From: Amphiscolops sp. MND2022
Lineage: Eukaryota
Assembly: GCA_964187785.1 (NCBI GenBank)
Contig: OZ076409.1
Location: forward strand, 16,494,001 to 16,558,000
Length of the DNA stretch: 64,000 nt
Reading direction: 5' to 3'
The translations under genes were made by a program, and so were the position numbers. Below the pieces are notes generated by a model. The model saw nothing but the letters and a program-made list of their open reading frames with translations, searched no databases and had not been told where the DNA came from. This document shows positions 1,302 to 64,000 of this stretch, one piece after another. Position 1 is the first letter of the stretch. Every line of letters starts with the position of its first letter.

Positions 1302-1519
1302 AGCCTAATTGTTGTGATAAACTTATTAAATAGGTAAGTATTCCATTTTTGGAGTATATCTTGCCTGTTTGAGGTGTGAGTCGCAGCAATCATAGGTCCA
1401 AAACCAGTAACCAAAAACCAACCTGTACTTACTTGTTTGAAAGGTAAGTATTCCAACCCTATTGATAAGTTTTATTTGAAAGCAGACTGCGAAAGTGGTC
1501 TGCTGCCCAATTTTTGAAC
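1302..1519 (+). pseudogene. SL RNA gene interrupted by mini-element
   Basis: SL sequence split at the donor region by insertion 1346-1441. Confidence 0.75.
1346..1441 (+). mobile_element. Non-coding SL-targeted mini-element, copy 1 (divergent subtype), site 2
   Basis: 96 bp; TSD AGGTAAGTATTCCA 1332-1345/1442-1455; ends TGTTTGAA. Confidence 0.85.
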
Positions 1520-1638: not shown

Positions 1639-1757
1639 GGCTACGACCATACCATGTTGAATGCACCGGTTCTCGTCCGATCACCGAAGTTAAACAACAT
1701 AGGGCCTGGTTAGTACTTGGATGGGAGACCGCTTGGGAACACCAGGTGTTGTAGCCT
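1639..1757 (+). rRNA. 5S rRNA
   Basis: Copy of 625-743. Confidence 0.98.
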
Positions 1758-8285: not shown

Positions 8286-8970
8286 TTTTTGTCAGAAATG
8301 TGGTTTAACTTCGGTGACAGTTTTGCAAAAGGGGTCAAATTGAAAAGATAGCACAAAACGGACAACGCCATCAGAAAGAGCGTCCAAAAAAACCCCCATG
8401 CTGAAATTTTCGCCGCCATCACTTGAATTTTCATTGAGTTATGTCATTTTTACTATTTTCACAAAATGTGGTTTAACTTCGGTGACAGTTTTGCAAAAGG
8501 GGTCAAAATGAACAGATAGCAAAAAACGGACAACGGCATTGGAAAGAGGGCCCAAAATTACCCCTAAAACGTGTTTTTCACACTCCTGAGTCGACTTTTG
8601 ATAATACATGGAATTTCATTTTTAAGCTTACTAATTTATGCTTTTCAGCATACATTTTCGTAATAGAGTCAAAATTTTGCTTTCTCACAATTTTTCTGGA
8701 ATATTTTTGTTTCATCAGATGTCAATAACTTGAAACGTCGTCTTTTCATGAGAATTTCTCCTCAAAACAAGTTGTTGGCTGGTAATGGTAAGTCCGTACC
8801 GCAGATAGGAGTCTCGCGCTCCAAAAATTGACTCTTTGCTTTTAGCCTAATTGTTGTGAACAGTTGACTTTTGACTTTTGCTTTCCCTGCAAATTTTTGC
8901 TGTTGAAAATTTTGAGAGTTTTTACGAGCTTTGCTCTATTCTAACAGATTATTGGAACGACTTATTGCCA

Positions 8971-10158
8971 ATGGAAAACGACGAGGTTTGTGAGGTTAGT
9001 GGCCCTTCGACTATGGATGACAATGTTTTGAACAACGAACCTTTAAATGATAATACCTCTGCACCTTCATCTAGTTATAGTAAAGTAGCTGGATCTGGTA
9101 TTCCTCCTCCACGTTTGAAAAACATTGTTAAGATGAAAATCTTCCCACCATTTCGGAAAAAACATTTTGAAGACAAGACTGCTTTTGACCTTGCTTCTAA
9201 AGAATGTATTAAAGCCATTCTCTTGGCATTCCCCACGAATCTGAGGCCAAATTTAACAATTGCCACATCATTTACAATGAAAGCAACACGTAAAATGCAT
9301 TCTGTTGACGTTGTTGCATCTGCAGATGCATCATATTACTTCAGTAAAATACAGACAAGTGGCATAGAAATGCTTGGTTGTACGGTCTTTCCGTCTGGAG
9401 AAGATTATTGGCAAGCTTTGCCTGGGTTATATCCTAAGCAGGTCGAAATCAAATTGTTGCATGTGCCTGTTGTGTGTAACGACGCGGAATTGCTTGAATT
9501 GCTACAATTGCCGCCAAACACAGAAACCATTCGTGTGAAACATTTCACTGATGATGTTGATGGAATCCATTTTTATAATGGTAAAGCTACCATTTCGGTC
9601 AAAGCGCAATCCGCAGAGCACGAAGATCAATTGAGACAATGGTCAATCAAAAGCCATGAAGAAAAAGGTTATATTTGGGAAGGAATTCCAATTTATGCGT
9701 TTATTCCTGCCCTACATTCTTGTCCTCATTGTAAGAAAATAAAGAAACCTTTTCATGGTCATGATATTTCATGGTGTCGTTATGCAAAAGAGGCAGCCAA
9801 AACAGAGGAAGCTGTAAAAGTGGCGGCTCTTAACGACGCAGCCGAAAAAAAGGCTGCTGATAAACAACGAAATCACTCAATGAAAAAGAAAGTTACAGAA
9901 GAAAAGCATTTCACGGAAAGTGATGACATCAGTGATTCTGATCAAGAATTGGGCGTCTGTACAGGAAAAAACAGGAAACAAAATGAATCTGATTTGCCAT
10001 GGCAAGAAGTTAAAAGTAAACGGTCTCGACAACAAGAGGCTCGTAAAGAAAGAGAAAGAGAGCGCGTTGCACCCAAAAGGAAGAAATACATATTTAAGTC
10101 TGACAATTTTTTGAAAAATCCTGAAAAAAATTCAAAATCATCTTCACTTAAATCATAA
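8971..10158 (+). CDS. Family A ORF1 (putative nucleic-acid-binding protein, CCHC motif)
   Basis: First in-frame ATG at 8971 (the track start 8878 is TTG); CPHC-x9-HDISWC; basic C-terminus; similar to ORF1 of B and D. Confidence 0.85.
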   Translation: MENDEVCEVSGPSTMDDNVLNNEPLNDNTSAPSSSYSKVAGSGIPPPRLKNIVKMKIFPPFRKKHFEDKTAFDLASKECIKAILLAFPTNLRPNLTIATSFTMKATRKMHSVDVVASADASYYFSKIQTSGIEMLGCTVFPSGEDYWQALPGLYPKQVEIKLLHVPVVCNDAELLELLQLPPNTETIRVKHFTDDVDGIHFYNGKATISVKAQSAEHEDQLRQWSIKSHEEKGYIWEGIPIYAFIPALHSCPHCKKIKKPFHGHDISWCRYAKEAAKTEEAVKVAALNDAAEKKAADKQRNHSMKKKVTEEKHFTESDDISDSDQELGVCTGKNRKQNESDLPWQEVKSKRSRQQEARKERERERVAPKRKKYIFKSDNFLKNPEKNSKSSSLKS

Positions 10159-10169
10159 GCATTAATTTT

Positions 10170-13100
10170 ATGAATTTGTGTTCATTCAATTGTAGGGGAC
10201 TTAAAGATCCAAATCGGCTTAGCAAGGTAATAAGTATATGCCAAAGTTCTGGTGTTCAGTTACAGAACATGGTATTGAATATTCAAGAAACGAAAATTGA
10301 AAGCCTGACAAAAGGTCATCTCAAAATCTTAGAATACTTTGATTTGAACTATGAAATAGTCCCAGCTGTGAATCAAGCAGGTGGACTTATTACTATTTTC
10401 CCAAAGTGTTGGAGTGTCAAAAAAGTCTATAAATCAGCAGGCTTGATGTTTTTGGATTTTCAAAACGTTTTAGGACTTTTTGTGAACGTATACATAAACC
10501 CATTAGATTACTCGCTGGAACATTTCAATGTTGGTTTTTCTAAACTTGATGCAGAAAAATGTGAGAAAATATATCTTTCTGGGGACCTCAATGCTCTTGC
10601 ATCAAGGGAATGCTCCACTAACCCCAACATTATGTCCAATGACATCCGTTTGATTCGTTTTCGCAAAATTGTGATGAAATTGTTTTCAATTCATTTAAAT
10701 CATATACAACCTGCTCCTGGATCTGACATTTTTACTCATTTTGATAAACGCACAGGCTCACTGAATCAAATTGATCATTTTTTCACTACCGATTGCTCGT
10801 ACTTTTTTGATACAAAAAACATTGCTTTCAGTGATCATAGATTGCTGATTTTGAGGAATGTAGACGATAGTTTCTTTTGCCCCAGCTATTGGAAATTCAA
10901 TGACAACGTACTTCAACATCATGTTGTGATTCAAGAGATCATCCGTGCGAGTTGTAACTCTGTTGATGAGCTTGATAGCTATGACACCTCAAAAAATTTA
11001 ATTAGAGACAAACTGAGATCACTCTGTATTCAGTGCGCCCGTGTAGAAAATCATGAAGAAAGTGCAATAATAAAAGAAATTAGACAAATTGAAAACGCAA
11101 TATGTCAGGCAGGTTCCAACGAAGTTTTATTAAGACAGTTGTCTCACTTCAATAGTCAACTTTTAATGATACAAAATTTGAAAGCCAGAAAAGATTTGAG
11201 ACAAATTAAAAATTTTTTCACAGATTTTCATCATGGAGATCCTCATACAGTTAAAAAACATGTGAAACGAAAACGAATGAAATCCCGAATTACTGCAATT
11301 AAAATAAACGAATCAGAAATATCTTATGATGAGGAGAAAATTCACCAGGAGTTTGTTCATCATTTCACAGAACGTTTTTCAAAGCCTCGTCTGACACATG
11401 AACAATTTGTTCAAAGTTCTCTTTTGAAAAATCAAGCTCTTAGTGACTTCTGCTCTAAAAACACTCAAAATATTCAAGATATTAGAAATTTATGTTCAAC
11501 AAGACAGGAAATTATGGAACAAGAAGTTAAACAGGCCATTAGAAAATTGAATTCAGAAAGCGCTCCAGGCTTGGATGGTCTGACTTCAAATTTTTATAAA
11601 GCCCATGCCGATTTTTTTGTCCCTTACCTAACTAAAGTGTTCAATCTTGTGCAGAATCAACAAAGGGTTCCTGAGTCCTTTAGGAATGCCGTAGTGAAAT
11701 TTATTCCAAAAAAAGAAACATCAGATTCAGTTGAAGATTATCGTCCAATTAGCTTGATAAATACAGATCAAAAAATTCTCTCTCATGTTCTGACTGCTCG
11801 TTTGATTGATCCGCTGTCAAAAATTATAGGTGTCCATCAAAGTGCTCATCTACCCAATCGTAACATTCATTCATCACTCATGAAAATAAATCTCAATCTG
11901 GAAACACTTGAAGATTCTGACTGCTTAGTTGCAGTAGACTTTAGCAAAGCGTTTGACAGGATTGATCGACGTTTTCTTTTTTTATTGCTCCAAGCAATAG
12001 GAATAGACGATATTACTTTGAAGTTAATCAAGGCTATGTATGAAAAAACAATAGCTTTTCTAGACATAAATGGATATCTTTCAACACCAGTGCAAATGGA
12101 AAACGGAGTCAGGCAAGGTTGTCCAATGTCAGCCCTTTTGTTTGATCTAGGTGTAGAACCTGTTTTACAATGTATTCGAGACTCTAATACTATTCTTTCA
12201 AACTCAATTTTCAAGGTAATTGCCTATGCGGATGATTTAACATGCTGCATTAAAAAGGAATCTTTTGATCAACTGATGGACACTTTGAATTGGTTTTCTC
12301 AAATAACTAATCTCGTTCTTAATCATGCTAAAACTGAGATTCTCTGTCCTTCACAGTTTGACAATGGGATCACAACTAAAGAGACTGCAAAAATTTTGGG
12401 TGTCACTTTCGAAGTGGGAAATCCTAAGATTGATATGTCTTCAATGACTTCCTATGCTGAAAAATCTCGCTTCTTCTGCAACAAATTCAATACGTTTGTT
12501 GCTCGTGCGAAAAATATTGACACTTTTGTAATGCAAAAACTTATTCATCAAGTTAGGCACAAAACTGCACTCAAACGACAGTTAGAAACTTTGGACAACA
12601 TCTTTGTTGATTCAATTTGGTTGGGACGAAAGCACAACCTGAAAAAATCGGTGCTTCAAAAATCTTGGTCAGCAATGGGAATAGCGCTGAAAAACTTCAC
12701 CAAAACTATTACATCGTCAAAAATAATTGACTTGAAAAATTTTTTAGGAGAAGATTTGACTGGGTCATTTTTTGAAATGTATCGTAAAACTTCGCATTAC
12801 AAAAATCTAATTAATCTAGTAAGGACTTTCAATTGCACGCTTCATATTAATCAAGGGAATCAGATCCACTTACTTAAAGGAGAAGAGATTAAAGATTTGA
12901 CTTTGTCAATGCGCACGAAAGAAATCTACAAGTTTCTTTCGGACTCAGATAATTCGGACGCTCTTCAGCGGATAACGAAAATTTCTTCGAAAATTTGCTA
13001 TCCCCCCGAACACATTTATACCTTCATTCGCCAACTTTGGAAACACCCAAGTTATGCTGCGTTTGAGAAGAACTATTTATATCAATTCCTAATGAATTGT

Positions 13101-13403
13101 TATCTAGATAAACCCAAAAAATGTGAACTTGGATGGGTTTTTGATTGTTTCTGTTGCTTTTGTGGATCAGCTGAGGAATCCCATAGTCATCTTTTGTTTG
13201 AATGTACAAATGTGCCTAACTTGAATTTTTTTCAAGTGACACAATCAATAAACTTGAGTTTTTTAGACCCAGGGGACATATATCCATTTAAAAGACTGAT
13301 TGCTCTGCTTTTGTCGTCTTGGAGTGGAGATAGCTCCAAGTTCCAGAAATATTTCCTTGATTGCATAAATCTCAGGAACCCTTCCCACTTCAATTCTCTG
13401 TAA
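10170..13403 (+). CDS. Family A ORF2: APE endonuclease + reverse transcriptase + C-terminal CCHC
   Basis: FNCRGL, IQETK, GDLN, SDH; APGLDG, RPISLINTDQKI, DFSKAFD, GVRQGCP, YADD; CCFC-x8-H-x4-C. Confidence 0.97.
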   Translation: MNLCSFNCRGLKDPNRLSKVISICQSSGVQLQNMVLNIQETKIESLTKGHLKILEYFDLNYEIVPAVNQAGGLITIFPKCWSVKKVYKSAGLMFLDFQNVLGLFVNVYINPLDYSLEHFNVGFSKLDAEKCEKIYLSGDLNALASRECSTNPNIMSNDIRLIRFRKIVMKLFSIHLNHIQPAPGSDIFTHFDKRTGSLNQIDHFFTTDCSYFFDTKNIAFSDHRLLILRNVDDSFFCPSYWKFNDNVLQHHVVIQEIIRASCNSVDELDSYDTSKNLIRDKLRSLCIQCARVENHEESAIIKEIRQIENAICQAGSNEVLLRQLSHFNSQLLMIQNLKARKDLRQIKNFFTDFHHGDPHTVKKHVKRKRMKSRITAIKINESEISYDEEKIHQEFVHHFTERFSKPRLTHEQFVQSSLLKNQALSDFCSKNTQNIQDIRNLCSTRQEIMEQEVKQAIRKLNSESAPGLDGLTSNFYKAHADFFVPYLTKVFNLVQNQQRVPESFRNAVVKFIPKKETSDSVEDYRPISLINTDQKILSHVLTARLIDPLSKIIGVHQSAHLPNRNIHSSLMKINLNLETLEDSDCLVAVDFSKAFDRIDRRFLFLLLQAIGIDDITLKLIKAMYEKTIAFLDINGYLSTPVQMENGVRQGCPMSALLFDLGVEPVLQCIRDSNTILSNSIFKVIAYADDLTCCIKKESFDQLMDTLNWFSQITNLVLNHAKTEILCPSQFDNGITTKETAKILGVTFEVGNPKIDMSSMTSYAEKSRFFCNKFNTFVARAKNIDTFVMQKLIHQVRHKTALKRQLETLDNIFVDSIWLGRKHNLKKSVLQKSWSAMGIALKNFTKTITSSKIIDLKNFLGEDLTGSFFEMYRKTSHYKNLINLVRTFNCTLHINQGNQIHLLKGEEIKDLTLSMRTKEIYKFLSDSDNSDALQRITKISSKICYPPEHIYTFIRQLWKHPSYAAFEKNYLYQFLMNCYLDKPKKCELGWVFDCFCCFCGSAEESHSHLLFECTNVPNLNFFQVTQSINLSFLDPGDIYPFKRLIALLLSSWSGDSSKFQKYFLDCINLRNPSHFNSL

Positions 13404-13563
13404 CGAAACGTCTTTGATGATATGTTGAATATCATGGTAATACCACTGAAATTCTGTACGATTTAACATTAAACATGAAACATTGTATTGGCTGATGGTT
13501 GTAATGATTGTTCTTATTGAAAGTTGATTGATGAAAAATTGACTCGTAAATATAGTCTTTGAA

Positions 13564-19898: not shown

Positions 19899-20137
19899 AG
19901 CCTAATTGTTGTGATAAACTTATTAAATAGGTAAGTATTCCAACCTCGGAATATTTCTTGCCTGTTTGAGGTGTTAATCACACATACTTATCAATAGGGC
20001 CCAAAAGCCAGTAACCAAAAACCAGTAACCAATAACCAACCTGTACTTACTGTTTGAAAGGTAAGTATTCCAACCCTATTGATAAGTTTTATTTGAAAGC
20101 AGACTGCGAAAGTGGTCTGCTGCCCAATTTTTCGAAC
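19899..20137 (+). pseudogene. SL RNA gene interrupted by mini-element
   Basis: Split by 19946-20058. Confidence 0.75.
19946..20058 (+). mobile_element. Non-coding SL-targeted mini-element, copy 2, site 2
   Basis: 113 bp; 17-bp TSD AGGTAAGTATTCCAACC 19929-19945/20059-20075. Confidence 0.88.
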
Positions 20138-21280: not shown

Positions 21281-21862
21281 TTTTTGTCAGAAATGTGGTT
21301 TAACTTCGGTGACAGTTTTGCAAAAGGGGTCAAATTGAAAAGATAGCAAAAAACGGACAACGCCATTAGAAAGAGCGTCCAAAAAAACCCCCATGCTGAA
21401 ATTTTCGCCGCCATCACTTGAATTTTCATTGAGTTATGTCATTTTTACTATTTTCACAAAATGTGGTTTAACTTCGGTGACAGTTTTGCAAAAGGGGTCA
21501 AAATGAACAGATAGCAAAAAACGGACAACGGCATTGGAAAGAGGGCCCAAAATTACCCCTAAAACGTGTTTTTCACACTCCTGAGTCGACTTTTGATAAT
21601 ACATGGAATTTCATTTTTAAGCTTACTAATTTATGCTTTTCAGCATACATTTTCGTAATAGAGTCAAAATTTTGCTTTCTCACAATTTTTCTGGAATATT
21701 TTTGTTTCATCAGATGTCAATAACTTGAAACGTCGTCTTTTCATGAGAATTTCTCCTCAAAACAAGTTGTTGGCTGGTAATGGTAAGTCCGTACCGCAGA
21801 TAGGAGTCTCGCGCTCCAAAAATTGACTCTTTGCTTTTAGCCTAATTGTTGTGAAAGCTTTG

Positions 21863-22056
21863 ATCCCTGAAGTCTGAGCCCTAGCCCCTTCAGTGGAACA
21901 GTTGACACCTCAAATAGTATAGAAGCCACTGCGCCAGCTGTGATTTCTCTAGATCCCTGAAGTCGAGCCCTAGCCCCTGAGGTGGATCGAGAAATCAAAG
22001 CTGAGGGAGAAACTGGCTGTATCCCTGAAGTCGAGCCCTAGCCCCTTCAGTGCGAT
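21863..22056 (+). repeat. Three ~35-bp direct repeats in the family B 5' UTR
   Basis: ATCCCTGAAGTC(T)GAGCCCTAGCCCCT at 21863, 21953 and 22021. Confidence 0.9.
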
Positions 22057-22118
22057 CGTTGGTGGAGACCCCCGCTTTTTGCAACTTTTTTCACCCGCTT
22101 TTTTCATAAAACCTCAAA

Positions 22119-23540
22119 ATGCCTCCTAAAAACTTCCTAGAAACAGCCTCTAGCAAAAAGAAATTTGAATCTTATAAACAAGGATCGAGAAGAAACTCAA
22201 CATCAAATCTAACATCAAACATACCCAACCCTGAAGGTAAATATATCGGACCAGCTGAACGAAATCGTCTTTTGAAAGAAAAGGAAGAAGAAGAACAGAG
22301 AAGACTGAAGATTGACAAGATGATTGAAGATACAAGGGAAGAATTTCCACCGATAGAAAGTTCCAGCAAACCACAATCACCACAGCCTAAAAGCCAACAA
22401 CAGGATGAAATACAAAACGAACAACGCCCAAAACAACAGCAGCCTCAACCTCAGCCCGACATTAGTAACAGTCAAAACAGCTACAGTAATGTGGTCTGTA
22501 ATCAAAAAAACGTAGTCGTAAACAAAATCTTCCGGTTGAAAATTGTACCTCCTTTTCGCAAAGAACATTTCGAAAACAAAAATACCCTCGAAACTGAGAT
22601 AGCAAAAGCTTATGCTGAAATCCTAAAACCATTCAAACCTCAAGTGCGAATGTACATTACAATTTCGAGAACTTTTGAAGAAAAATGGGGAAAAAGACTT
22701 CACATTTTACATGTAATTGCCCCTGAAGAAGCGGAAGAAGACATCGAAAACATTAAAACTAAAGGTTTACAAATAATGGGCAGAACAGTATTTCCAACTG
22801 GAGACGATTTTTACCAAGTTCGTAACAGTCAATTTCCCCGGAAAGTGTGGGTAAAGATTAACAATTTGCCGTTTCTTTGCAGCGATGAAGTTTTACTCAG
22901 TCTACTAGACCTCCCAGAAGGAGTTGAGATTAGTGAAAATGTAACAAGAGAAACGATACAAACTGAAAATGGCACCATCCACAACGGAAAGGCTAAACTG
23001 TCAGTTGTGGTACCAGACAGTGAAAAACTCAAAGAACTCAAACAGTGGTCTTTGGAGAAAAGTCACATTTGCGTCACAAAATGGTTCGAAATTCCGATTT
23101 ATATGTCGACCCCAAGCCTGCACAAATGTGACGCTTGTGAAAAAGAAAATCGGAAATCGTACATTGGCCACGACATAGCGTGGTGCAGGGTCTTAAGGAA
23201 ACCTGAAAAAACTGAGGAAGCTCCCGAAAGCTGCCAAGAAGAAACAGCGGACGAATCACAAGCTGAACAAGAAAACGAAGTATGGGCTGACGCACCAACA
23301 AAATCCTTCCCAATTACAAACAAAAAGAACAAGAAAAGAGCGAAGTCGAAATCTAAAGAGACCACCAGCCCTGGATTGATGCAGCAGAATAAATTTCAGC
23401 TTCTTTCTACATCCAGTGACCAACCTGAAGCAATTCTAAGCGCAACGTCAACAATACAAAACCAGCCACAAAATCCAAAGAACCCGCAGCACCCCGAAAC
23501 GCCCTGTGAAGCACCCCTGGAAAGAAGCGACAATGGATGA
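22119..23540 (+). CDS. Family B ORF1
   Basis: 473 aa; KIVPPF, GRTVFP and CDAC-x10-HDIAWC motifs shared with A and D ORF1. Confidence 0.88.
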   Translation: MPPKNFLETASSKKKFESYKQGSRRNSTSNLTSNIPNPEGKYIGPAERNRLLKEKEEEEQRRLKIDKMIEDTREEFPPIESSSKPQSPQPKSQQQDEIQNEQRPKQQQPQPQPDISNSQNSYSNVVCNQKNVVVNKIFRLKIVPPFRKEHFENKNTLETEIAKAYAEILKPFKPQVRMYITISRTFEEKWGKRLHILHVIAPEEAEEDIENIKTKGLQIMGRTVFPTGDDFYQVRNSQFPRKVWVKINNLPFLCSDEVLLSLLDLPEGVEISENVTRETIQTENGTIHNGKAKLSVVVPDSEKLKELKQWSLEKSHICVTKWFEIPIYMSTPSLHKCDACEKENRKSYIGHDIAWCRVLRKPEKTEEAPESCQEETADESQAEQENEVWADAPTKSFPITNKKNKKRAKSKSKETTSPGLMQQNKFQLLSTSSDQPEAILSATSTIQNQPQNPKNPQHPETPCEAPLERSDNG

Positions 23541-26500: not shown

Positions 26501-26859
26501 AAAAACTCACTTCGTTTGATAAAAACTATCTTTACTGCTTCCTAATGAATTCGTATCTAGATAAACAAGACAAGTGGCTTAAAAATCTTGTTCTCCAACC
26601 ACTATGTTTCGCATGTGAAGCAGAATTTGAAACATGGGACCATTTAATGTTTTCTTGTAAAAATTTGAAAACGTTAACATTGAAGTTGAACGTTTTTTCA
26701 TGGAAGGAAATATGGCTTGATCGAAGTTGTCTCTCTCAAAAACTCCTTGTAGCAATAATGCTCTCGTCGTGGACAGAATCAATTGGAGACTACTTAAAAT
26801 ATTTTCTGGAACGTATGAAAGTAATACTAATACCAGTTGCAAATCTATCTGATAATTGA
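23533..26859 (+). pseudogene. Family B ORF2 (APE-RT-CCHC) with premature TAA at 25603-25605
   Basis: ATG 23533 (MDEEIEIFSINARGL). The frame continues past the TAA as RIQKSK...CIAYADD and into the 25711-26859 ORF (same frame). Confidence 0.9.
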
Positions 26860-26951
26860 TGATATGATGCAATTCTGATCTAATGAATTCCAGGTTGATC
26901 TTTTGTAAAAAAAAAGGGTTGATATTATTCATGATTAATTGAAGTTTTGAA

Positions 26952-30571: not shown

Positions 30572-30810
30572 AGCCTAATTGTTGTGATAAACTTATTAAA
30601 TAGGTAAGTATTCCAACCTTGGAATATTTCTTGCCTGTTTGAGGTGTGAATCACACTCACTTATCAATAGGGCCCAAAAGCCAGTAACCAATAACCAGTA
30701 ACCAATAACCAACCTGTACTTACTGTTTGAAAGGTAAGTATTCCAACCCTATTGATAAGTTTTATTTGAAAGCAGACTGCGAAAGTGGTCTGCTGCCCAA
30801 TTTTTTGAAC
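30572..30810 (+). pseudogene. SL RNA gene interrupted by mini-element
   Basis: Split by 30619-30731. Confidence 0.75.
30619..30731 (+). mobile_element. Non-coding SL-targeted mini-element, copy 3, site 2
   Basis: 113 bp; 17-bp TSD 30602-30618/30732-30748; several substitutions versus copy 2. Confidence 0.88.
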
Positions 30811-35266: not shown

Positions 35267-35670
35267 TTTCCAACCCAAGTCCTTTTAATAAGTTTGCTTG
35301 TACATCATTCGGTTAAGCAACCCATAGCTCTGTGCTATCATTCAAACTACCATTTTACAAACCCGTCGTGAAGCACCTAAGAAGCCATTCTTTCCTACGG
35401 GGGTCGCTGGCTAAGGTTTGATCTGCGTGGATATTTTTCCAACCGGCTCGTGTGTGGTCGCGTTAGTAGATCAAGCTGAGAAACCGAGACTGGTGCTTCC
35501 CAGCGTATTCGTGAGGTTGCGCTGAAGCTTTCTTGGCGGTCGGCTGGCAGGAGCCCTCAATAAACTGCCAGTTGTCCCAGCAGAGCTCTTCACAGCTGGC
35601 AGTGATAGATGCTCTGTTTCCCCCTAAAAACAAAACAACTCTTTCCCTTTTATTTCAACTGAACTGAAGA

Positions 35671-36867
35671 ATGGATTACGCAGCAGCAGCAGCAAAATCA
35701 AGCGAAACAACAGAAGACTACCTCCCCCCACTTCTGTTTGTACTTCCAATCACTAAAGAAGACTTCAACACTCCGAACGGAATTATTGACATCTTCGTTA
35801 AACTCTGTACGACACTCTTAGCAAAACTACCATGTGAGGCAAGAACGAAAACGGTCATCCAACGAGTAACATACGGGTTCAAGAAATTGAAGGCAGTCAA
35901 AGTAAACTTGCCAACTTCTTGTCAGAACGTTCAAAACGAAATGCTCGGCATGGGGCTAGAATGTGGGAACAAAACGGTATGGCCGGTGCGAGACGACCGA
36001 ACCTACAGATTCTACCCGTGCAATGTCAGCATCAAGATTCAAAATGCCCTGCCCAATCTGACCAACGAAGAAATCAAGAACGAACTGAAACTACCCGAAG
36101 GCATTACTGCGAACGACGACTTGAACTTCAAAACAGTCAGCATTGGGCCGTACATGAAAGTCTTTGATGGAACAGCGACAATCTCTGCCACTGTTCAATC
36201 TGCCGAGCAAATGGAAGAAATGAAAAACTGGTCGCGCAAATCTTTCTTTGAAGAAAAACAAGTTAGAAATCAAGTGACTCAGATGTATGCTCCTAACATC
36301 ATGACATGTACTTTCTGTGAAAAGAAAGGCTCCTTCTACAGAGGTCATGATGACACTTGGTGCACAAAGAAAACGAAAGAAGAACGCGAACTGGAAAAAA
36401 AAGCGAAGGCGATCGAAGACGAAGGCGACGTCTTCACAGCCGACGAACAAAGTGTACACAACGAACAAATCGCAAAAATTAGAAACGACAGCTGTGCATC
36501 AACATCAAGCAGAAATAATAAAAGACGACGCAGCACACCAAAGCGCGCCAACTCGGAAAAAAACCCACGACTCAGTGCGAGACAGCGAACCAGCCAAATA
36601 CCAAAGATGAAAGCAAAAGCTCAAAATGAGAACAAACCCGAACAGAAAGAAAGTACAAGTCAAACTGCAAACAACAACAGTGATAACAATGACGAGAATG
36701 AAGAACAAGATACCACAAGCACGAAGAACGCAGATACCGAAAACAGATTGCCGAAACCGCTGAACATGAGAGATTTTGTGGATGCAATGAATCCAATCCA
36801 TCACATAGAAACAAATGAAACAACAAACAACAACGTCAACGAAACAAACAATACGAAGACGAAATGA
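35671..36867 (+). CDS. Family C ORF1
   Basis: 398 aa; GNKTVWP and CTFC-x9-HDDTWC; stop overlaps the ORF2 start (ATGA). Confidence 0.88.
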   Translation: MDYAAAAAKSSETTEDYLPPLLFVLPITKEDFNTPNGIIDIFVKLCTTLLAKLPCEARTKTVIQRVTYGFKKLKAVKVNLPTSCQNVQNEMLGMGLECGNKTVWPVRDDRTYRFYPCNVSIKIQNALPNLTNEEIKNELKLPEGITANDDLNFKTVSIGPYMKVFDGTATISATVQSAEQMEEMKNWSRKSFFEEKQVRNQVTQMYAPNIMTCTFCEKKGSFYRGHDDTWCTKKTKEERELEKKAKAIEDEGDVFTADEQSVHNEQIAKIRNDSCASTSSRNNKRRRSTPKRANSEKNPRLSARQRTSQIPKMKAKAQNENKPEQKESTSQTANNNSDNNDENEEQDTTSTKNADTENRLPKPLNMRDFVDAMNPIHHIETNETTNNNVNETNNTKTK

Positions 36868-39800
36868 CGACGCCCAACATTGTTAGTTTCAATTGTAGGG
36901 GTCTTGGCAATCCCTTGAAACTCACAAGCCTAATTGCAAACACTGACATCAACAATGACGTCATTGCAATTCAAGAAACTAAAATGAAAAAACTAAAGAA
37001 AAAACATTTGAAAATACTCGAGTCCTACGACCTGAATTACGTAATCAGCCCATGCGACAAATCAAAAGCGGGCGGCCTGCTGCTTTTGTTCAAAGCAAAA
37101 CATAACGTAGAGTTGGTTACCCAAAACAAGTCTTTTCAAATTATAAAGATGTCAAACCAAGCCATTGAAACAAAGATGGCCAATGTTTACATATGCCCCA
37201 GCTGGAGTATAAGCAAAATCAATGAAGAACTTGAAGACCTGAAACTCAACTTGGAATCAAAGCATCTCAGGCATATTGAACCATGTGTAATAGTTGGTGA
37301 CTTGAATTGTTTCGATGACGTCACAAGAAACAAACATCCTCAATATGCAAAACACAAAGTTATACTGAAAGCGTTTGAAAAAATGGGCTTGATGGACATG
37401 GCAGTGAAGCTTGAGAATATCGAGAACACACACTTCGCGCCAGCCCAAAAACCATCGCGCCTGGATTATATCTTCTCAAATGTTGTGAGTCAGAAACAAG
37501 AAATCAGAACGATCAAGACATGCTTCTCAGATCACCGAATTTTGCGCCTGTCAAGCAAGCATAAGGCCGAGCAAGGTCAAAAGATCTTTAGAATGGATGA
37601 CACAACTGTTGATGAAAACGTCAAAACCCTGAAAACGCTGATTTCACAAACAAATGGCTTGACCGGTGAACAGCTAGCGAATGATGCGTATCTCACAATG
37701 AAAAATGAAATTTCCAACTTTCTAAGACAGGCTAGCATATGGAGAGCAAGAAATAACAAAGACAGACTGCTCAAAGGGCCCGACGCAGAAGCTGAGCAGA
37801 ATCTTGCAAAAAGAATGCTAGCAGCAGTGAAGGTCAAATGCACTGACCTGAATGAAGGAAACTTGAAGATTGTTAAAAAGTACTGCTCTGACAATGCAAA
37901 CAACCAAAGCAACGCGATCAAGAAGCTGAAAACACAGAAAGATCGAATTATCTCAAGTGAGAATGAGATCATAGATGAAGTTACAAAGTACTACAGTAAG
38001 CTCTACGCCAACGAAACAATTGATGAGAAGAAACAAGAGTGCCTCATCACAAACTTCAAAAAACAGATCTCTGAAGATGAAAGAGAACGTCTAACTCAGC
38101 AAATCACCCTAGACGAAATCAAAAATGCGATTGACAATCTGAACAAAGAAAGCGCGCCAGGCCCAGATGGACTCACCCCAAAACTGTTTCAAACGTTCAA
38201 GGAAGAATTCAGTCTTATGTTTCAAAAGATGTTTGAACATGCTGCAGACGGTAACAACTTACCAATGGCATTCAACCAAGCCTTCATTAGACTACTTCCG
38301 AAAAGTGGTGATCTGACAACATTGAAGAACTGGAGACCAATAAGCCTGATCAACACTGACAGCAAGATTTTTTCAGCAGTAATTGCAAACCGAATGAAAA
38401 GTAGCCTCCGCGAAATCATCCACCCAGATCAATGCGCATATTTGAAAGGCAGACAAATGTCAAACGCCACACTGCTACTAAAATCTCTGTGCACAAACAA
38501 AAGAATGAAAAAAACTTTGACACTAGCTGGACTCGACTTCAGCAAAGCCTTCGACAGGGTAGATCGTTCGTACTTGCTGAAACTTATAAAACATGTGGGA
38601 TTCCCTCCCAACATATACAACATGATAGAGCAACTGTACAAAGATACACGATCTAACGTTCTAGTCAACTCCTTCATCACAAGACGAATACAGCAAGAAA
38701 GAGGAGTGAAACAAGGCTGCCCAGTCTCAGCTCTTTTGTTCATCCTAGCTATTGAGCCATTGCTTGAACTACTGAGATCGTCATCGAGCCTGACTGGAAT
38801 CGCAAAAGGAAAATTGAAGAAAAAAATCATTGCATATGCTGATGACGTCACAATGTTAGTTGAGAATGAAGAACAACTGAAGCAAGCAATTCAAACGGTT
38901 GAAGACTTTGGCAAAAGCACCCAATTCGCCTTGAACGCTGACAAAACGGAACAGTTTGACCTGAACCGAAGAAATGTAGATCAAAAGATCAAACTCCTCG
39001 GTTTGTATTTGTTCAGCAACCAAAAATGTGAAAAGCAGCACTACCAGCAACAACTGATCCAAGAAAGCGAAAGAGCAAAGAAAGTGTGTAGACCATCAAT
39101 GTCGATGAAAACTAAAAGTTGCGTCATGAAAGCCTTCGTAATGCCAAAAATAGTGTTTCATGCGAAAGCCTCAAACTGTGATCGAGCAACTTGGAAAAAA
39201 GTTCAACGAAACCTAAAACAAGGACTTCACAACAATAGGAGCAATCAGATTTCAGAACGCCTTCTTTTCCAAAGCACCAATGAAGGCGGTGTTGGCTTCC
39301 CATGCGTGAAGACCTATGCAAGCACTTCTTTTCTGATGGATGTGTGGAGAGCAGTGTTCCACAATGACGATCACTTTATTGCACTCGAAATCAAAGAAGC
39401 AGTAGAAGACGAGAAAAGTTACGTTCACAGCAAACTGAAACAAATGAAAACGATAACGAAAGCGCGAGCGATAACTTTCAAGCGAGAACACATAGAGTTT
39501 GTGACAAGTGAAGGACCAACAAAAATGCCTGCTACTTCAAAAGCAATATACGCCTTTGCAATCCGCCGACAGCATGCAGACTTCGTAGATGAAAGAATCA
39601 TGAAAGCGGGATCAAAACTTCAAACAGCACCCCAACAACTTCTGTACACACTCAAAGCAATTTGGAGAAGCAACAAACTGAACCCTGTTCAACGAGACGT
39701 CTTCTATAATTTCAGTTTCAATCTTTACCGAGACAAAGTATTCCTCCATGCAGCTGGCTACAAGTCTGATGATGACTGTTTCCTTTGCGGAGCAAGTAAA

Positions 39801-40031
39801 CAAACACATGAGCATCTGATCCTAGATTGTCAAAAAACAAAGCAGATTGCTGAAACCCTTGGAATTCGCAGCATGAAAGATCTGTACCAGCAGGCAGAAC
39901 AAGACACATGGAAAAAAGTGAGATTCGTAACAACTCTGCTCATATGTTCATGGACCGACAACAAGAAAGAAGTGGAACAAATGATTCACAACTTTCCCAT
40001 CACTACCAAGCAAGTTGGCACAGTGGCTTAG
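36864..40031 (+). CDS. Family C ORF2: APE endonuclease + RT + CCHC
   Basis: FNCRGL, IQETK, GDLN, SRLDY, SDH; APGPDG, WRPISLINTDSKI, DFSKAFDRV, GVKQGCP, YADD; CFLC-x8-H-x4-C. Confidence 0.97.
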   Translation: MTTPNIVSFNCRGLGNPLKLTSLIANTDINNDVIAIQETKMKKLKKKHLKILESYDLNYVISPCDKSKAGGLLLLFKAKHNVELVTQNKSFQIIKMSNQAIETKMANVYICPSWSISKINEELEDLKLNLESKHLRHIEPCVIVGDLNCFDDVTRNKHPQYAKHKVILKAFEKMGLMDMAVKLENIENTHFAPAQKPSRLDYIFSNVVSQKQEIRTIKTCFSDHRILRLSSKHKAEQGQKIFRMDDTTVDENVKTLKTLISQTNGLTGEQLANDAYLTMKNEISNFLRQASIWRARNNKDRLLKGPDAEAEQNLAKRMLAAVKVKCTDLNEGNLKIVKKYCSDNANNQSNAIKKLKTQKDRIISSENEIIDEVTKYYSKLYANETIDEKKQECLITNFKKQISEDERERLTQQITLDEIKNAIDNLNKESAPGPDGLTPKLFQTFKEEFSLMFQKMFEHAADGNNLPMAFNQAFIRLLPKSGDLTTLKNWRPISLINTDSKIFSAVIANRMKSSLREIIHPDQCAYLKGRQMSNATLLLKSLCTNKRMKKTLTLAGLDFSKAFDRVDRSYLLKLIKHVGFPPNIYNMIEQLYKDTRSNVLVNSFITRRIQQERGVKQGCPVSALLFILAIEPLLELLRSSSSLTGIAKGKLKKKIIAYADDVTMLVENEEQLKQAIQTVEDFGKSTQFALNADKTEQFDLNRRNVDQKIKLLGLYLFSNQKCEKQHYQQQLIQESERAKKVCRPSMSMKTKSCVMKAFVMPKIVFHAKASNCDRATWKKVQRNLKQGLHNNRSNQISERLLFQSTNEGGVGFPCVKTYASTSFLMDVWRAVFHNDDHFIALEIKEAVEDEKSYVHSKLKQMKTITKARAITFKREHIEFVTSEGPTKMPATSKAIYAFAIRRQHADFVDERIMKAGSKLQTAPQQLLYTLKAIWRSNKLNPVQRDVFYNFSFNLYRDKVFLHAAGYKSDDDCFLCGASKQTHEHLILDCQKTKQIAETLGIRSMKDLYQQAEQDTWKKVRFVTTLLICSWTDNKKEVEQMIHNFPITTKQVGTVA

Positions 40032-40320
40032 CCAAAGACCATGAGTCAAACAAACGAGGTTCGAACCTCTGACGGAACCAAGACACAAACATGAAAAAAA
40101 CTCTTTTACCTTATTGTTTGAAAGGTAAGTATTCCAACCCTATTGATAAGTTTTATTTGAAAGCAGACTGCGAAAGTGGTCTGCTGCCCAATTTTTTGAA
40201 CAAGGAACAAGCTAGTCTGCACTAACTTAAAAGTTACGCGTATTTTGACCGAGAAAATTTTCGTATCATTGTACGTAATTTTGTTGTTAAGCATATAAAG
40301 CTATTGATTTTACAATGATC

Positions 40321-43754: not shown

Positions 43755-44118
43755 ATTCGGTTATGCAACCCATAGCTCTGTGCTATCATTCAAACTACCA
43801 TTTTACAAACCCGTCGTGAAGCACCTAAGAAGCCATTCTTTCCTACGGGGGTCGCTGGCTAAGGTTTGATCTGCGTGGATATTTTTCCAACCGGCTCGTG
43901 TGTGGTCGCGTTAGTAGATCAAGCTGAGAAACCGAGACTGGTGCTTCCCAGCGTATTCGTGAGGTTGCGCTGAAGCTTTCTTGGCGGTCGGCTGGCAGGA
44001 GCCCTCAATAAACTGCCAGTTGTCCCAGCAGAGCTCTTCACAGCTGGCAGTGATAGATGCTCTGTTTCCCCCTAAAAACAAAACAACTCTTTCCCTTTTA
44101 TTTCAACTGAACTGAAGA

Positions 44119-45312
44119 ATGGATTACGCAGCAGCAGCAAAATCAAGCGAAACAACTAAAGACTACCTCCCCCCACTTCTGTTTGTACTTCCAATCACTA
44201 AAGAAGATTTCAACACGCCGAACGGAATTACTGACATCTTCGTTAAACTCTGTACGACACTCTTAGCAAAACTACCATGTGAGGCTAGAACGAAAACGGT
44301 CATCCAACGAGTATTATACGGATTCAAGAAATTGAAGGCAGTCAAAGTAAACTTGCCAACTTCATGTCAAAACGTACAAAACGAAATGCTCGGCATGGGG
44401 CTAGAATGTGGGAACAAAACGGTATGGCCGGTGCGAGACGACCGAACCTACAGATTCTACCCGTGCAATGTCAGCATCAAGATTCAAAATGCCCTGCCCA
44501 ATCTGACTAACGAAGAAATCAAGAACGAACTGAAACTACCCGAAGGCATTACTGCGAACGACGACTTGAACTTCAAAACAGTCAGCATTGGGCCGTACAT
44601 GAAAGTCTTTGATGGAACAGCGACAATCTCTGCCACTGTTCAATCTGCCGAGCAAATGGAAGAAATGAAAAACTGGTCGCGCAAATCTTTCTTTGAAGAA
44701 AAACAAGTTAGAAATCAAGTGACTCAGATGTATGCTCCTAACATCATGACATGTACTTTCTGTGAAAAGAAAGGCTCCTTCTACAGAGGTCATGATGACA
44801 CTTGGTGCACAAAGAAAACGAAAGAAGAACGCGAACTGGAAAAAAAAGCGAAGGCGATCGAAGACGAAGGCGACGTCTTCACAGCCGACGAACAAAGTGT
44901 ACACAACGAACAAATCGCAAAAATCAGAAACGACAGCTGTGCATCAACATCAAGCAGAAATAATAAAAGACGACGCAGCACACCAAAGCGCGCCAACTCG
45001 GAAAAAAACCCACGACTCAGTGCGAGACAGCGAACCAGCCAAATACCAAAGATGAAAGCAAAAGCTCAAAATGAGAACAAACCCGAACAGAAAGAAAGTA
45101 CAAGTCAAACTGCAAACAACAACAGTGATAACAATGACGAGAATGAAGAACAAGATACCACAAGCACGAAGAACGCAGATACCGAAAACAGATTGCCGAA
45201 ACCGCTGAACATGAGAGATTTTGTGGATGCAATGAATCCAATCCATCACATAGAAACAAATGAAACAACAAACAACAACGTCAACGAAACAAACAATACG
45301 AAGACGAAATGA
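44119..45312 (+). CDS. Family C ORF1 (copy 2)
   Basis: 397 aa, nearly identical to 35671-36867. Confidence 0.88.
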   Translation: MDYAAAAKSSETTKDYLPPLLFVLPITKEDFNTPNGITDIFVKLCTTLLAKLPCEARTKTVIQRVLYGFKKLKAVKVNLPTSCQNVQNEMLGMGLECGNKTVWPVRDDRTYRFYPCNVSIKIQNALPNLTNEEIKNELKLPEGITANDDLNFKTVSIGPYMKVFDGTATISATVQSAEQMEEMKNWSRKSFFEEKQVRNQVTQMYAPNIMTCTFCEKKGSFYRGHDDTWCTKKTKEERELEKKAKAIEDEGDVFTADEQSVHNEQIAKIRNDSCASTSSRNNKRRRSTPKRANSEKNPRLSARQRTSQIPKMKAKAQNENKPEQKESTSQTANNNSDNNDENEEQDTTSTKNADTENRLPKPLNMRDFVDAMNPIHHIETNETTNNNVNETNNTKTK

Positions 45313-48300
45313 CGACGCCCAACATTGTTAGTTTCAACTGTAGGGGTCTTGGCAATCCCTTGAAACTCACAAGCCTAATTGCAAATACTGACATCAACAA
45401 CGACGTCATTGCAATTCAAGAAACTAAAATGAAAAAACTAAAGAAAAAACATTTGAAAATACTCGAGTCCTACGACCTGAATTACGTAATCAGCCCATGC
45501 GACAAATCAAAAGCGGGCGGCCTGCTGCTTTTGTTCAAAGCAAAACATAACGTAGAGTTGGTTACCCAAAACAAGTCTTTTCAAATTATAAAGATGTCAA
45601 ACCAAGCCACTGAAACAAAGATGGCCAATGTTTACATATGCCCCAGTTGGAGTATAAGCAAAATCAATGAAGAACTTGAAGACCTGAAACTCAACTTGGA
45701 ATCAAAGCATCTCAGGCATATTGAACCATGTGTAATAGTTGGTGACTTGAATTGTTTCGATGACGTCACAAGAAACAAACATCCTCAATATGCAAAACAC
45801 AAAGTCATACTGAAAGCGTTTGAAAAAATGGGCTTGATGGACATGGCAGTGAAGCTTGAGAATATCGAGAACACACACTTCGCGCCAGCCCAAAAACCAT
45901 CGCGCCTGGATTATATCTTCTCAAATATTGTGAGTCAGAAACAAGAAATCAGAACGATCAAGACATGCTTCTCAGATCACCGAATTTTGCGCCTGTCAAG
46001 CAAGCATAAGGCCGAGCAAGGTCAAAAGATCTTTAGAATGGATGACACAACTGTTGATGAAAACGTCAAAACCCTGAAAACGCTGATTTCACAAACAAAT
46101 GGCTTGACCGGTGAACAGCTAGCGAATGATGCGTATCTCACAATGAAAAATGAAATTTCCAACTTTCTAAGACAGGCTAGCATATGGAGAGCAAGAAATA
46201 ACAAAGACAGACTGCTCAAGGGGCCCGACGCAGAAGCTGAGCAGAATCTTGCAAAAAGAATGCTAGCAGCAGTGAAGGTCAAATGCACTGACCTGAATGA
46301 AGGAAACTTGAAGATTGTTAAAAAGTACTGCTCTGACAATGCAAACAACCAAAGCAACGCGATCAAGAAGCTGAAAACACAGAAAGATCGAATTGTCTCA
46401 AGTGAGAATGAGATCATAGATGAAGTTACAAAGTACTACAGTAAGCTCTACGCCAACGAACCAATTGATGAGAAGAAACAGGAGTGCCTCATCACAAACT
46501 TCAAAAAACAGATCTCTGAAGATGAAAGAGAACGTCTAACTCAGCAAATCACCCTAGACGAAATCAAAAATGCGATTGACAATCTGAACAAAGAAAGCGC
46601 GCCAGGCCCAGATGGACTCACCCCAAAACTGTTTCAAACGTTCAAGGAAGAATTCAGTCTTATGTTTCAAAAGATGTTTGAACATGCTGCAGACGGTAAC
46701 AACTTACCATTGGCATTCAACCAAGCCTTCATTAGACTACTTCCGAAAAGTGGTGATCTGACAACATTGAAGAACTGGAGACCAATAAGCCTGATCAACA
46801 CTGACAGCAAGATTTTTTCAGCAGTAATTGCAAACAGAATGAAAAGTAGCCTCCGCGAAATCATCCACCCAGATCAATGCGCATATTTGAAAGGCAGACA
46901 AATGTCAAACGCCACACTGCTACTAAAATCTCTGTGCACAAACAAAAGAATGAAAAAAACTTTGACACTAGCTGGACTCGACTTCAGCAAAGCCTTCGAC
47001 AGGGTAGATCGTTCGTACTTGCTGAAACTTATAAAACATGTGGGATTCCCTCCCAACATATACAACATGATAGAGCAACTGTACAAAGATACACGATCTA
47101 ACGTTCTAGTCAACTCCTTCATCACAAGACGAATACAGCAAGAAAGAGGAGTGAAACAAGGCTGCCCAGTCTCAGCTCTTTTGTTCATCCTAGCTATTGA
47201 GCCATTGCTTGAACTACTGAGATCGTCATCGAGCCTGACTGGAATCGCAAAAGGAAAATTGAAGAAAAAAATCATTGCATATGCTGATGACGTCACAATG
47301 TTAGTTGAGAATGAAGAACAACTGAAGCAAGCAATTCAAACGGTTGAAGACTTTGGCAAAAGCACCCAATTCGCCTTGAACGCTGACAAAACGGAACAGT
47401 TTGACCTGAATCGAAAAATGAAGATCAAAAGATCAAACTCCTCGGTTTGTATTTGTTCAGCAACCAAAAAAGTGAAAAGCAGCACTACCAGCAACAACTG
47501 ATCCAAGAAAGCGAAAGAGCAAAGAAAGTGTGTAGACCATCAATGTCGATGAAAACGAAAAGTTGCGTCATGAAAGCCTTCGTAATGCCAAAAATAGTGT
47601 TCCATGCGAAAGCCTCAAACTGTGATCGAGCAACTTGGAAAAAAGTTCAACGAAACCTAAAACAAGGACTTCACAACAATAGGAGCAATCAGATTTCAGA
47701 ACGCCTTCTTTTTCAAAGCACCAATGAAGGCGGTGTTGGCTTCCCATGCGTGAAGACCTATGCAAGCACTTCTTTTCTGATGGATGTGTGGAGAGCAGTT
47801 TTCCACAATGACGATCACTTTATTGCACTCGAAATCAAAGAAGCAGTAGAGGACGAGAAAAGTTACGTTCACAGCAAACTGAAACAAATGAAAACGATAA
47901 CGAAAGCGCGAGCGATAACTTTCAAGCGAGAACACATAGAGTTTGTGACAAGTGAAGGACTAACAAAAATCCCTGCTACTTCAAAAGCAATATACGCCTT
48001 TGCAATCCGCCGACAGCATGCAGACTTCGTAGATGAAAGAATCATGAAAGCGGGCTCAAAACTTCAAACATCACCCCAACAACTTCTGTACACACTCAAA
48101 GCAATTTGGAGAAGCAACAAACTGAACCCTGTTCAACGAGACGTCTTCTATAATTTCAGTTTCAATCTTTACCGAGACAAAGTATTCCTCCATGCAGCTG
48201 GCTACAAGTCTGATGATGACTGTTTCCTTTGCGGAGCAAGTAAACAAACACATGAGCATCTGATCCTAGATTGTCAAAAAACAAAGCAGATTGCTGAAAC

Positions 48301-48475
48301 CCTTGGAATTCGCAGCATGAAAGATCTGTACCAGCAGGCAGAACAAGACACATGGAAAAAAGTGAGATACGTAACAACTCTGCTCATATGTTCATGGACC
48401 GACAACAAGCAAGAAGTGGAACAAATGATTCACAACTTTCCCATCACTACCAAGCAAGTTGGCACAGTGGCTTAG
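45309..48475 (+). pseudogene. Family C ORF2 (copy 2) with a 1-nt deletion frameshift near 47414-47418
   Basis: C1 CGAAGAAATGTAGAT versus C2 CGAAAAATGAAGAT; the remainder continues in ORF 47447-48475; could be a homopolymer error. Confidence 0.85.
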
Positions 48476-48764
48476 CCAAAGACCATGAGTCAAACAAACG
48501 AGGTTCGAACCTCTGACGGAACCAAGACACAAACATGAAAAAAACTCTTTTACCTTATTGTTTGAAAGGTAAGTATTCCAACCCTATTGATAAGTTTTAT
48601 TTGAAAGCAGACTGCGAAAGTGGTCTGCTGCCCAATTTTTTGAACAAGGAACAAGCTAGTCTGCACTAACTTAAAAGTTACGCGTATTTTGACCGAGAAA
48701 ATTTTCGTATCATTGTACGTAATTTTGTTGTTAAGCATATAAAGCTATTGATTTTACAATGATC

Positions 48765-50346: not shown

Positions 50347-50569
50347 AGCCTAATTGTTGTGATAAACTTATTAAATAGGTAAGTATTTCTTGCCTGTTTG
50401 AGGTGTTAATCACACATACTTATCAATAGGGCCCAAAAGCCAGTAACCAAAAACCAGTAACCAATAACCAACCTGTACTTACTGTTTGAAAGGTAAGTAT
50501 TCCAACCCTATTGATAAGTTTTATTTGAAAGCAGACTGCGAAAGTGGTCTGCTGCCCAATTTTTTGAAC
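50347..50569 (+). pseudogene. SL RNA gene interrupted by mini-element
   Basis: Split by 50388-50490. Confidence 0.75.
50388..50490 (+). mobile_element. Non-coding SL-targeted mini-element, copy 4 (5'-shortened), site 2
   Basis: 103 bp; TSD AGGTAAGTATT 50377-50387/50491-50501 with TATT microhomology at the 5' junction; body matches copy 2. Confidence 0.88.
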
Positions 50570-63594: not shown

Positions 63595-64000
63595 GGTATG
63601 GCCGGTGCGAGACGACCGAACCTACAGATTCTACCCGTGCAATGTCAGCATCAAGATTCAAAATGCCCTGCCCAATCTGACTAACGAAGAAATCAAGAAC
63701 GAACTGAAACTACCCGAAGGCATTACTGCGAACGACGACTTGAACTTCAAAACAGTCAGCATTGGGCCGTACATGAAAGTCTTTGATGGAACAGCGACAA
63801 TCTCTGCCACTGTTCAATCTGCCGAGCAAATGGAAGAAATGAAAAACTGGTCGCGCAAATCTTTCTTTGAAGAAAAACAAGTTAGAAATCAAGTGACTCA
63901 GATGTATGCTCCTAACATCATGACATGTACTTTCTGTGAAAAGAAAGGCTCCTTCTACAGAGGTCATGATGACACTTGGTGCACAAAGAAAACGAAAGAA
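63595..64000 (+). mobile_element. Family C copy 3, 5'-truncated within ORF1, SL site 2; runs off the window
   Basis: Starts GGTATGGCCGGTGCG (= C1 ~35976); carries the C2-type CTGACTAAC variant. Confidence 0.93.

Follow-up and report, generated by a model that had tools for sequence, protein, structure and literature searches.

We describe a 96-nt insertion at the splice donor of a spliced leader (SL) RNA gene, which we assign with high confidence to a non-autonomous retroposon-type element (the mini-element). Its 5' part is a G.U-wobbled antisense copy of the SL exon and donor, and this arm very probably makes a functional RNA hairpin; donor masking is the purpose of the hairpin that we favour, with less assurance. 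On balance, we consider it likely that the mini-element is a retroposon of the SL donor, likely copied by an L1-group element, likely from a co-transcript started at the SL promoter, whose arms are predicted to close both donors and to avoid trans-splicing in this way.

The SL gene and the 96-nt insert

The window, i.e., the whole 64-kb stretch of DNA that was analysed, is a tandem array with a 904-bp unit, each unit having one 5S rRNA gene and one SL RNA gene (42 Rfam matches to 5S rRNA), and the array is interrupted by ten insertions. The features at the insert are:

1303..1333, + strand: SL exon, 31 nt, ending at the donor AG, equal to the published leader
1332..1345, + strand: 5' copy of the 14-bp target duplication, with the upstream donor AG/GTAAGT
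1346..1441, + strand: mini-element of subfamily A, 96 nt, without ORF, poly(A) or pol III A/B box (from the sequence)
1350..1397, + strand: G.U-wobbled antisense arm against the exon and the upstream donor (fold and alignment)
1398..1424, + strand: A/C-rich linker of CCAGTAA/CCAAAAA units, mostly unpaired in predicted folds
1425..1434, + strand: second, short antisense arm, pairing with the downstream donor 1442-1451 (predicted fold)
1434..1441, + strand: 3' terminus TGTTTGAA, common to the full-length donor-site L1-group element
1442..1455, + strand: 3' copy of the target duplication, with the second donor
1456..1516, + strand: remaining SL RNA intron with a stem-loop (1482-1503) and the Sm-site-like AATTTTTG (1509-1516) (sequence and fold)
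1639..1757, + strand: 5S rRNA gene of the 904-bp 5S/SL unit (Rfam RF00001, 117.5 bits)

The exon is the same sequence as the trans-spliced leader of the acoel Symsagittifera roscoffensis (PMC9911081; bioRxiv 10.1101/2022.08.27.505549). In that species 30.2% of genes are trans-spliced and the leader was reconstructed from mRNA 5' ends, according to the accessible part of PMC9911081; leader identity here means a match to that sequence. As expected of an SL RNA gene, the donor lies inside a stem-loop, a second stem-loop and an Sm-like site follow (labelled by the resemblance of AATTTTTG to motifs in the part of PMC7986045 available), and the gene is multicopy, with 1148 exact genome-wide matches to the intact donor region. 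The Rfam scan of the window gave no SL family above its threshold. The bases upstream of the leader vary by array (GACTCT, GGCTCC, GTCTCC; C1, C12, C13) and the exon is constant, which is consistent with a putative cap site at (A)GCCTA. A 200-N assembly gap lies at 2458-2657, within one repeat unit.

The insert is flanked by AGGTAAGTATTCCA on both sides (1332-1345 and 1442-1455), and a four-T loop precedes the long arm. The TGTTTGAA terminus followed by the donor occurs at 82 exact junctions in the genome. The tRNA, 7SL or 5S head and the internal pol III promoter of a classical SINE were not found: consensus patterns gave no A/B box on either strand, and the Rfam search of 1250-1620 gave nothing near threshold and no SINE-head family. 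Ribozyme families searched with E up to 10 gave none in the mini-element or the L1 5' end, so that the 5' self-cleaving ribozyme of a SIDE was not detected. The mini-element is also not an internal deletion product with both ends from the partner, as a SIDE would be; its BLASTN match to the L1 is limited to the 3' terminus and the duplication (last 8-16 nt).

The antisense arm and its A>G bias

The initial annotation described four antiparallel pairing blocks between the insert and the upstream SL sequence, and all four are present: GGAGTA (1351-1356) with TATTCC (1339-1344), CTTGCCTGTTTGA (1360-1372) with 1326-1338, GTCGCAGCAAT (1380-1390) with 1308-1318, and TAGGT (1393-1397) with GCCTA (1303-1307). 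Its description of a copy of nearly the whole exon and donor is also accurate, the arm reaching back across the donor to the exon's first base. As claimed, nearly all departures from the exact complement within the blocks are A>G (seven of eight, the other being C>T), and all eight are G.U-compatible. All 43 columns together have eight A>G, one C>T, no T>C, no G>A and four transversions, the transversions all within one internal loop (columns 21-27); the arm has two bulges, of 3 nt and 2 nt.

The suggested comparison with shuffled controls supported the hairpin: the predicted energy of 1288-1520 is -72.8 kcal/mol (z -7.09), a value that none of 200 shuffles reached, and the uninserted SL gene has a z of -2.14. 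With only the insert shuffled, the arm against the exon gave z -8.2 (0/200 as good). The transcript was taken from 14 nt upstream of the leader start for this insert-only shuffle and for the donor-opening and cap-site 5'-end folds; the picture of closed donors was unchanged when the co-transcript was folded from the true leader start. Among 150 random mutants of a perfect repeat, matched for number of changes, transition share and bulges, none folded as well in RNA (mean -24.7 versus -43.0 kcal/mol for the actual arm) and none equalled its strand asymmetry.

In the native SL RNA, the donor UAAGU is predicted to lie in a loop (unpaired probability 0.79), and both donors of the co-transcript are predicted to be paired (unpaired probability 0.01-0.04). 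The proposal that the hairpin hides the donor is in line with the model, in which the upstream UAAGU has an unpaired probability of 0.01 and the predicted opening energy of the upstream donor is 15.4 versus 6.4 kcal/mol in the native RNA. The downstream donor AG/GUAAGU is predicted to be weakly closed (4.8-5.8 versus 6.4 kcal/mol native), its UAAGU alone being harder to open (2.6-3.1 versus 0.6). In every subfamily, the uninterrupted helix with the greatest predicted stability in the long arm is the one on the donor.

Relative to the exact complement, the arm 1350-1397 has A->G at 8/16 and T->C at 0/15 positions (Fisher p 0.0016). A>G and T>C are one DNA mutation on opposite strands, thus a bias towards transitions does not explain the excess. 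The expectation that other copies keep the bias held in the comparison of copy A, one B copy and five older copies, whose columns are not independent events: 15 of 23 A/C columns changed to G/T versus 5 of 20 T/G columns to C/A (p 0.009). The pair-keeping direction comprises 10/16 A and 5/7 C columns, and the pair-breaking direction 4/15 T and 1/5 G columns.

Single changes in the RNA helix cost 0.12 (A>G), 2.1 (C>T), 4.0 (T>C) and 6.1 kcal/mol (G>A), and A>G costs 3.8 kcal/mol in the cDNA hairpin. Resetting the eight columns to A leaves the RNA energy the same (-42.7 versus -43.0 kcal/mol) and takes the cDNA hairpin from the actual -5.7 to -25.9 kcal/mol (a difference of about 20). Since A>G is the sole transition free in the RNA helix and the others are costly, purifying selection on the RNA structure is sufficient to account for the bias. 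Only one-sided changes are countable, with no compensatory double change, because the exon arm is the invariant target. The bias had been tentatively attributed to selection on RNA structure or to ADAR editing captured by reverse transcription; the first cause suffices (0.12 versus 2.1-6.1 kcal/mol), but the two are not equal and ADAR is unnecessary. The nearly unfolded cDNA would, in the model, help annealing to the next target, and positive selection for A>G through cDNA unfolding may also have acted (the one-way hairpin considered below).

A mutational origin of the A>G excess is the main alternative to selection: a perfect fold-back arose once, ADAR edited it, and the inosines were repeatedly fixed as G by reverse transcription, with masking still possible. 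An array does contain a perfect 28-bp SL fold-back, and ADAR-like deaminase exons are located in three places on C6, one of them downstream of a dsRNA-binding motif, with ADARs as the best solved matches. ADARs prefer the 5' neighbours U, A, C and G in this order, and the changed/unchanged A counts (U 5/2, A 4/1, C 1/2, G 0/1) fit loosely; subfamily A and four of the five older copies, however, have kept A at the single UAG site. Two young A>G polymorphisms lie at paired positions, and three columns are A in subfamily B and G in subfamily A and the older copies, but A>G is free in RNA and its excess needs no editing. Moreover, ADAR cannot make C>T, and pair-keeping C>T is found at 5/7 C columns, two of them common to all five older copies. 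The exon arms before 36 mini-elements, most of them probably target-derived, had no A>G, and neither had the exons captured at L074 and C12:56431247. The shared C>T wobbles and the lack of A>G in exon arms disfavour ADAR as the sole cause, and we regard this editing origin as unlikely, although ADAR could supply the A>G mutations.

Copies, probable partner elements and captured leaders

The survey of 864 kb of arrays, a part of the genome's total with 477 intact SL units, gave 38 parsed copies and one with an altered 3' flank. They belong to two young subfamilies, A with 12 copies (95-96 nt) and B with 22 full-length copies (113 nt), four truncated ones and the one with the altered flank. The 12 genome copies of subfamily A are 97-100% identical. 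Exact search for the arm core detected 43 array copies, of which 36 were read, and three chance matches. Five older dispersed relatives (L071, L073, L074, L087, L088) were found, a count that leaves out four more off-array matches; nine other off-array pattern matches and L092 were rejected as chance. In addition to copy A, the window contains:

19946..20058, + strand: mini-element of subfamily B, 113 nt, with a 17-bp duplication
30619..30731, + strand: mini-element of subfamily B
50388..50490, + strand: 5'-truncated subfamily B copy with an 11-bp duplication

In the B copy at 19946-20058, ACTTATCAATAGGG complements the downstream intron arm perfectly over 14 nt; at the second donor it is predicted to take the place of the exon strand in SL stem-loop I. 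Subfamily A and the older copies have a two-base bulge that resembles this ACTTATCAATAGGG segment of B. The fewer wobbles of subfamily B and its perfect intron-arm complement suggest that B may be partly refreshed from the target.

All array copies have a single common 3' junction and duplications of 11-17 bp, and 4 of 38 are 5'-truncated. They are found behind three array-specific upstream alleles (17, 11 and 7 copies), some nested behind other insertions. The constant junction, duplications, truncations and different alleles are marks of target-primed reverse transcription. With its lack of coding capacity and with a target and a (short) tail common with its partner, the mini-element has the properties of a non-autonomous retroposon. 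An assembly artefact was ruled out by the 12 A and 27 B polymorphic copies on several contigs, always in the SL orientation. A metagenome scan for cross-species covariation (79 loci) yielded two contigs, both with the identical leader behind cap-site elements and neither with a mini-element.

Five identical A copies lie within 9 kb on C1, and such neighbouring copies were probably multiplied by array recombination rather than by separate insertions. They would also be expected if the insert were a functionless inverted duplication from repair at a nick, spread by unequal crossing-over only, and perfect fold-backs do arise in arrays. We find this very improbable, because the strand asymmetry (8/16 versus 0/15) is unexpected from DNA-level drift, and 5' truncations with differing duplications, three chromosomes, different alleles, and nested and dispersed copies speak against it. 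Still less credible is an antisense regulator kept by the host to titrate the normal SL RNA in trans. Pairing of the arm with any SL RNA is conceivable, and subfamily B complements the intron arm too, but in the predicted folds the arm is already engaged in cis, about 43 arm-bearing copies face 1148 intact donors, and the mini-element has the insertion marks of a selfish element.

The arm starts right where the duplication ends. Synthesis by fold-back from the nicked end of the target would produce this arrangement, and we infer it as the origin of the arm. The array flips orientation at C13:13287827, where a donor-site L1 5' end and an SL gene are joined head to head by 28 bp of perfectly inverted SL exon. 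The dispersed L073 and L087 (C13, at ~51.0 and ~49.1 Mb) have similar flanks with donor-like sequence on both sides, and a degenerate SL exon lies ~0.9 kb upstream of L073; these loci are possibly decayed SL genes or off-target sites.

Two insertion sites of the SL gene are in use, the cap site and the donor. The window has three L1-group copies at the donor:

35277..40122, + strand: full-length two-ORF L1-group element (ORFs 35668-36867 and 36819-40031) with endonuclease and RT
43755..48566, + strand: second donor-site L1, slightly 5'-truncated, ORF2 in two frames, 99% identical to 35277-40122
63595..64000, + strand: 5'-truncated donor-site L1 copy, continuing past the window end

The donor-site L1 is 4.85 kb long. 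It has ORF1 and an ORF2 with an N-terminal apurinic-type endonuclease (Exo_endo_phos), RT and a C-terminal zinc region (weak match), as in the L1 group, and not the restriction-like endonuclease after the RT of NeSL/CRE/SLACS. ORF2 matches human L1 ORF2p with E 1e-59 and R2 proteins with E 2e-30 or weaker; among the best 120 of 883 RT matches there is no named Tx1 reference. Judging from the common cut site and the TGTTTGAA end, the donor-site L1 is the likely mobilising partner of the mini-element.

Nine of 12 full-length donor-site L1 5' ends are without an upstream donor and three keep one; the donor-less L1 rebuilds the exon hairpin (z -3.1). Three arm-less truncated mini-elements sit behind a donor. 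The 3' ends of the donor-site L1 and of all mini-elements are predicted to pair with the downstream donor (L1 3' arm, 5/96 control windows as good; mini-element 3' arms, -7.9 to -8.7 kcal/mol, 3-4 control windows). The cap-site elements have no donor next to their ends: 11 of 14 distinct 5' ends are without antisense (z above -1), three, those of the 1.4-1.6 kb elements with ORF1 only, begin with a short antisense of the G.U type (z -1.7 to -2.7) without having a donor to mask, and 13 of 14 3' ends pair no better than control windows. These counts do not support RNA-guided priming through 3' pairing as a feature of every family, nor a 5' fold-back common to all of them. The L1 donor loss, the cap-site ends mostly without arms and the donor-site 3' ends pairing the donor point to a role of the donor.

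The same ends bear on whether the arms serve integration or RNA stability instead of splicing, the 3' arm swapping partners during priming and the 5' arm protecting or exporting the capped RNA or blocking SL snRNP assembly. The 3' arm complements exactly the duplicated bases, but 13/14 cap-site 3' ends are not complementary to the sites they target, despite related enzymes. G.U-type antisense in three cap-site 5' ends without a donor, and the exon hairpin of the donor-less L1, would fit such a role, yet L1 deletes the donor itself and the best helix of the long arm is on the donor in every subfamily. We consider a role outside splicing rather improbable, and prefer donor masking.

The cap site is occupied by several divergent two-ORF L1-group families (8860-13563, 21855-26951 and 55000-59932 in the window), found also in arrays of C1, C12 and C13 and inserted directly before the SL exon's first base. 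Their duplications are 12-19 bp long, they have no poly(A), and their 3' ends have in common a loose motif like TCTT(T/C)AAA; metagenome contigs L139 and L143 show this arrangement too. Abundant cap-site elements whose only frames are ORF1-like and which lack an RT (C1:16294327, 1982 nt; C1:16312690, 1434 nt; C12:56234687, 1621 nt) are, by their sequence, putative non-autonomous elements with a retained ORF1. The 2-kb type has ~20 copies in the surveyed part of the arrays, and the short G.U-type antisense at the start of the 1.4-1.6 kb types is directed against the exon and shows A>G at columns that are changed in the A mini-element as well. Metagenome contigs L158 and L204 contain L1-like ORF2 relatives beside 5S rRNA sequence and are possibly 5S-targeting elements.

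Four junctions have an SL exon starting with (A)GCCTA away from its promoter: C12:56431247, C12:56148189, C12:56226518 and L074. Two of the carriers are copies of the donor-site L1 and one is a cap-site element; the fourth, the dispersed L074, is an older mini-element copy whose 3 kb contains no match to the SL promoter, the SL intron or 5S, and it could instead be a dispersed gene fragment. L088 carries part of the SL exon too. All four starts equal the published leader start, suggesting that the template RNA likely begins at the SL cap. In R2, uniform junctions and upstream-target duplications are described as a sign of target RNA on the template (PMC3774820). The captured leaders indicate that SL-element co-transcripts probably served as templates. 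The initial annotation had proposed a read-through co-transcript; the captured exons support the co-transcript indirectly, but it is likely the normal replication template and not accidental read-through. The locus L007 (C917) was rejected as a captured exon, the same junction being present without a mini-element at C12:56259083 and C12:56127669; at all three loci a 5'-clipped SL exon is joined to sequence with CCAAT-/TATA-like motifs, at array edges.

Proposed replication cycle and known systems

We suggest the following cycle. Transcription would start at the SL cap site and run through the insert into the SL intron, so that the mini-element needs no promoter, ribozyme or poly(A). The long arm would close the upstream donor; otherwise the capped exon would be lost to an mRNA through trans-splicing and the element thrown away. 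The L1 protein would nick at the donor and copy the RNA as far as the SL exon, and the cDNA end, left free by a nearly melted hairpin (-5.7 versus -25.9 kcal/mol), would anneal to the target upstream, which would make the 5' junctions uniform, as they are in R2. A>G would accumulate as the sole changes that the RNA helix tolerates at no cost.

A more far-reaching possibility is that the mini-element is a promoter-less retroposon using the SL RNA as cap, promoter and 3' end, with a one-way hairpin whose G.U pairs would lock the donor in RNA and whose same columns would be C.A mismatches in the cDNA, A>G being positively selected, within a community of array L1-group elements each evading trans-splicing (by masking the donor, deleting it or inserting ahead of it). 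We put this forward tentatively.

SLACS, CRE and CZAR of kinetoplastids insert site-specifically in SL genes and encode a restriction-like endonuclease. The nematode NeSL, grouped with Utopia, likewise inserts site-specifically in SL genes and has a restriction-like endonuclease, according to the accessible part of PMC4640811. Unlike all of these, the partner described here has two ORFs, with endonuclease/exonuclease/phosphatase and RT domains, and no donor-masking antisense arm or ~100-nt satellite was found for NeSL, SLACS, CRE or CZAR in the literature searched.

The mini-element is closer to the R2 SIDEs and R2/R1 hybrid SIDEs of Drosophila, short non-autonomous elements at the partner's site in a tandem RNA-gene array, which share uniform 5' junctions and captured upstream target and are made from a host co-transcript (accessible parts of PMC3414825, PMC3774820); the junctions, one of the mini-element family (L074) and three of larger elements, suggest that the mini-element may be made in this way too. 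SIDEs join an R2 ribozyme to the element 3' end (PMC3414825), whereas no ribozyme was found in the mini-element and its 5' part is antisense to the target; its partner is an L1-group element with apurinic-type endonuclease, and the target is the SL gene. Tx1, Keno, Kibi, Koshi and Tx1-Mar also combine L1-group enzymes with sequence-specific targets in multicopy RNA genes, and SINEU is a short element with its partner's target and tail, for which transcription from flanking sequence was proposed; the Tx1-clade targets described are a transposon, U2, U5, 5S, satellites and microsatellites, in contrast to SL genes here, and the SINEU heads are sense U1/U2 copies, in contrast to a head antisense to its own target (PMC4494074, as far as accessible). 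By analogy, the mini-element appears to work like an R2 SIDE, yet it matches the definition of neither SIDE nor SINE. We found no published description of such an element in a search that left most subscription papers and Repbase outside.

If true, the proposed cycle would explain the persistence of a mobile element in a gene whose transcript trans-splicing uses up, a difficulty that elements targeting rDNA or snRNA genes do not meet. It adds L1-group enzymes, with two exact cut sites (cap site and donor) in one 110-nt gene, to the SL-targeting elements, and the captured exons map the SL transcription start from DNA alone. The hairpin, predicted to be stable in RNA and not in its cDNA, would provide a natural, testable case of such an asymmetry.
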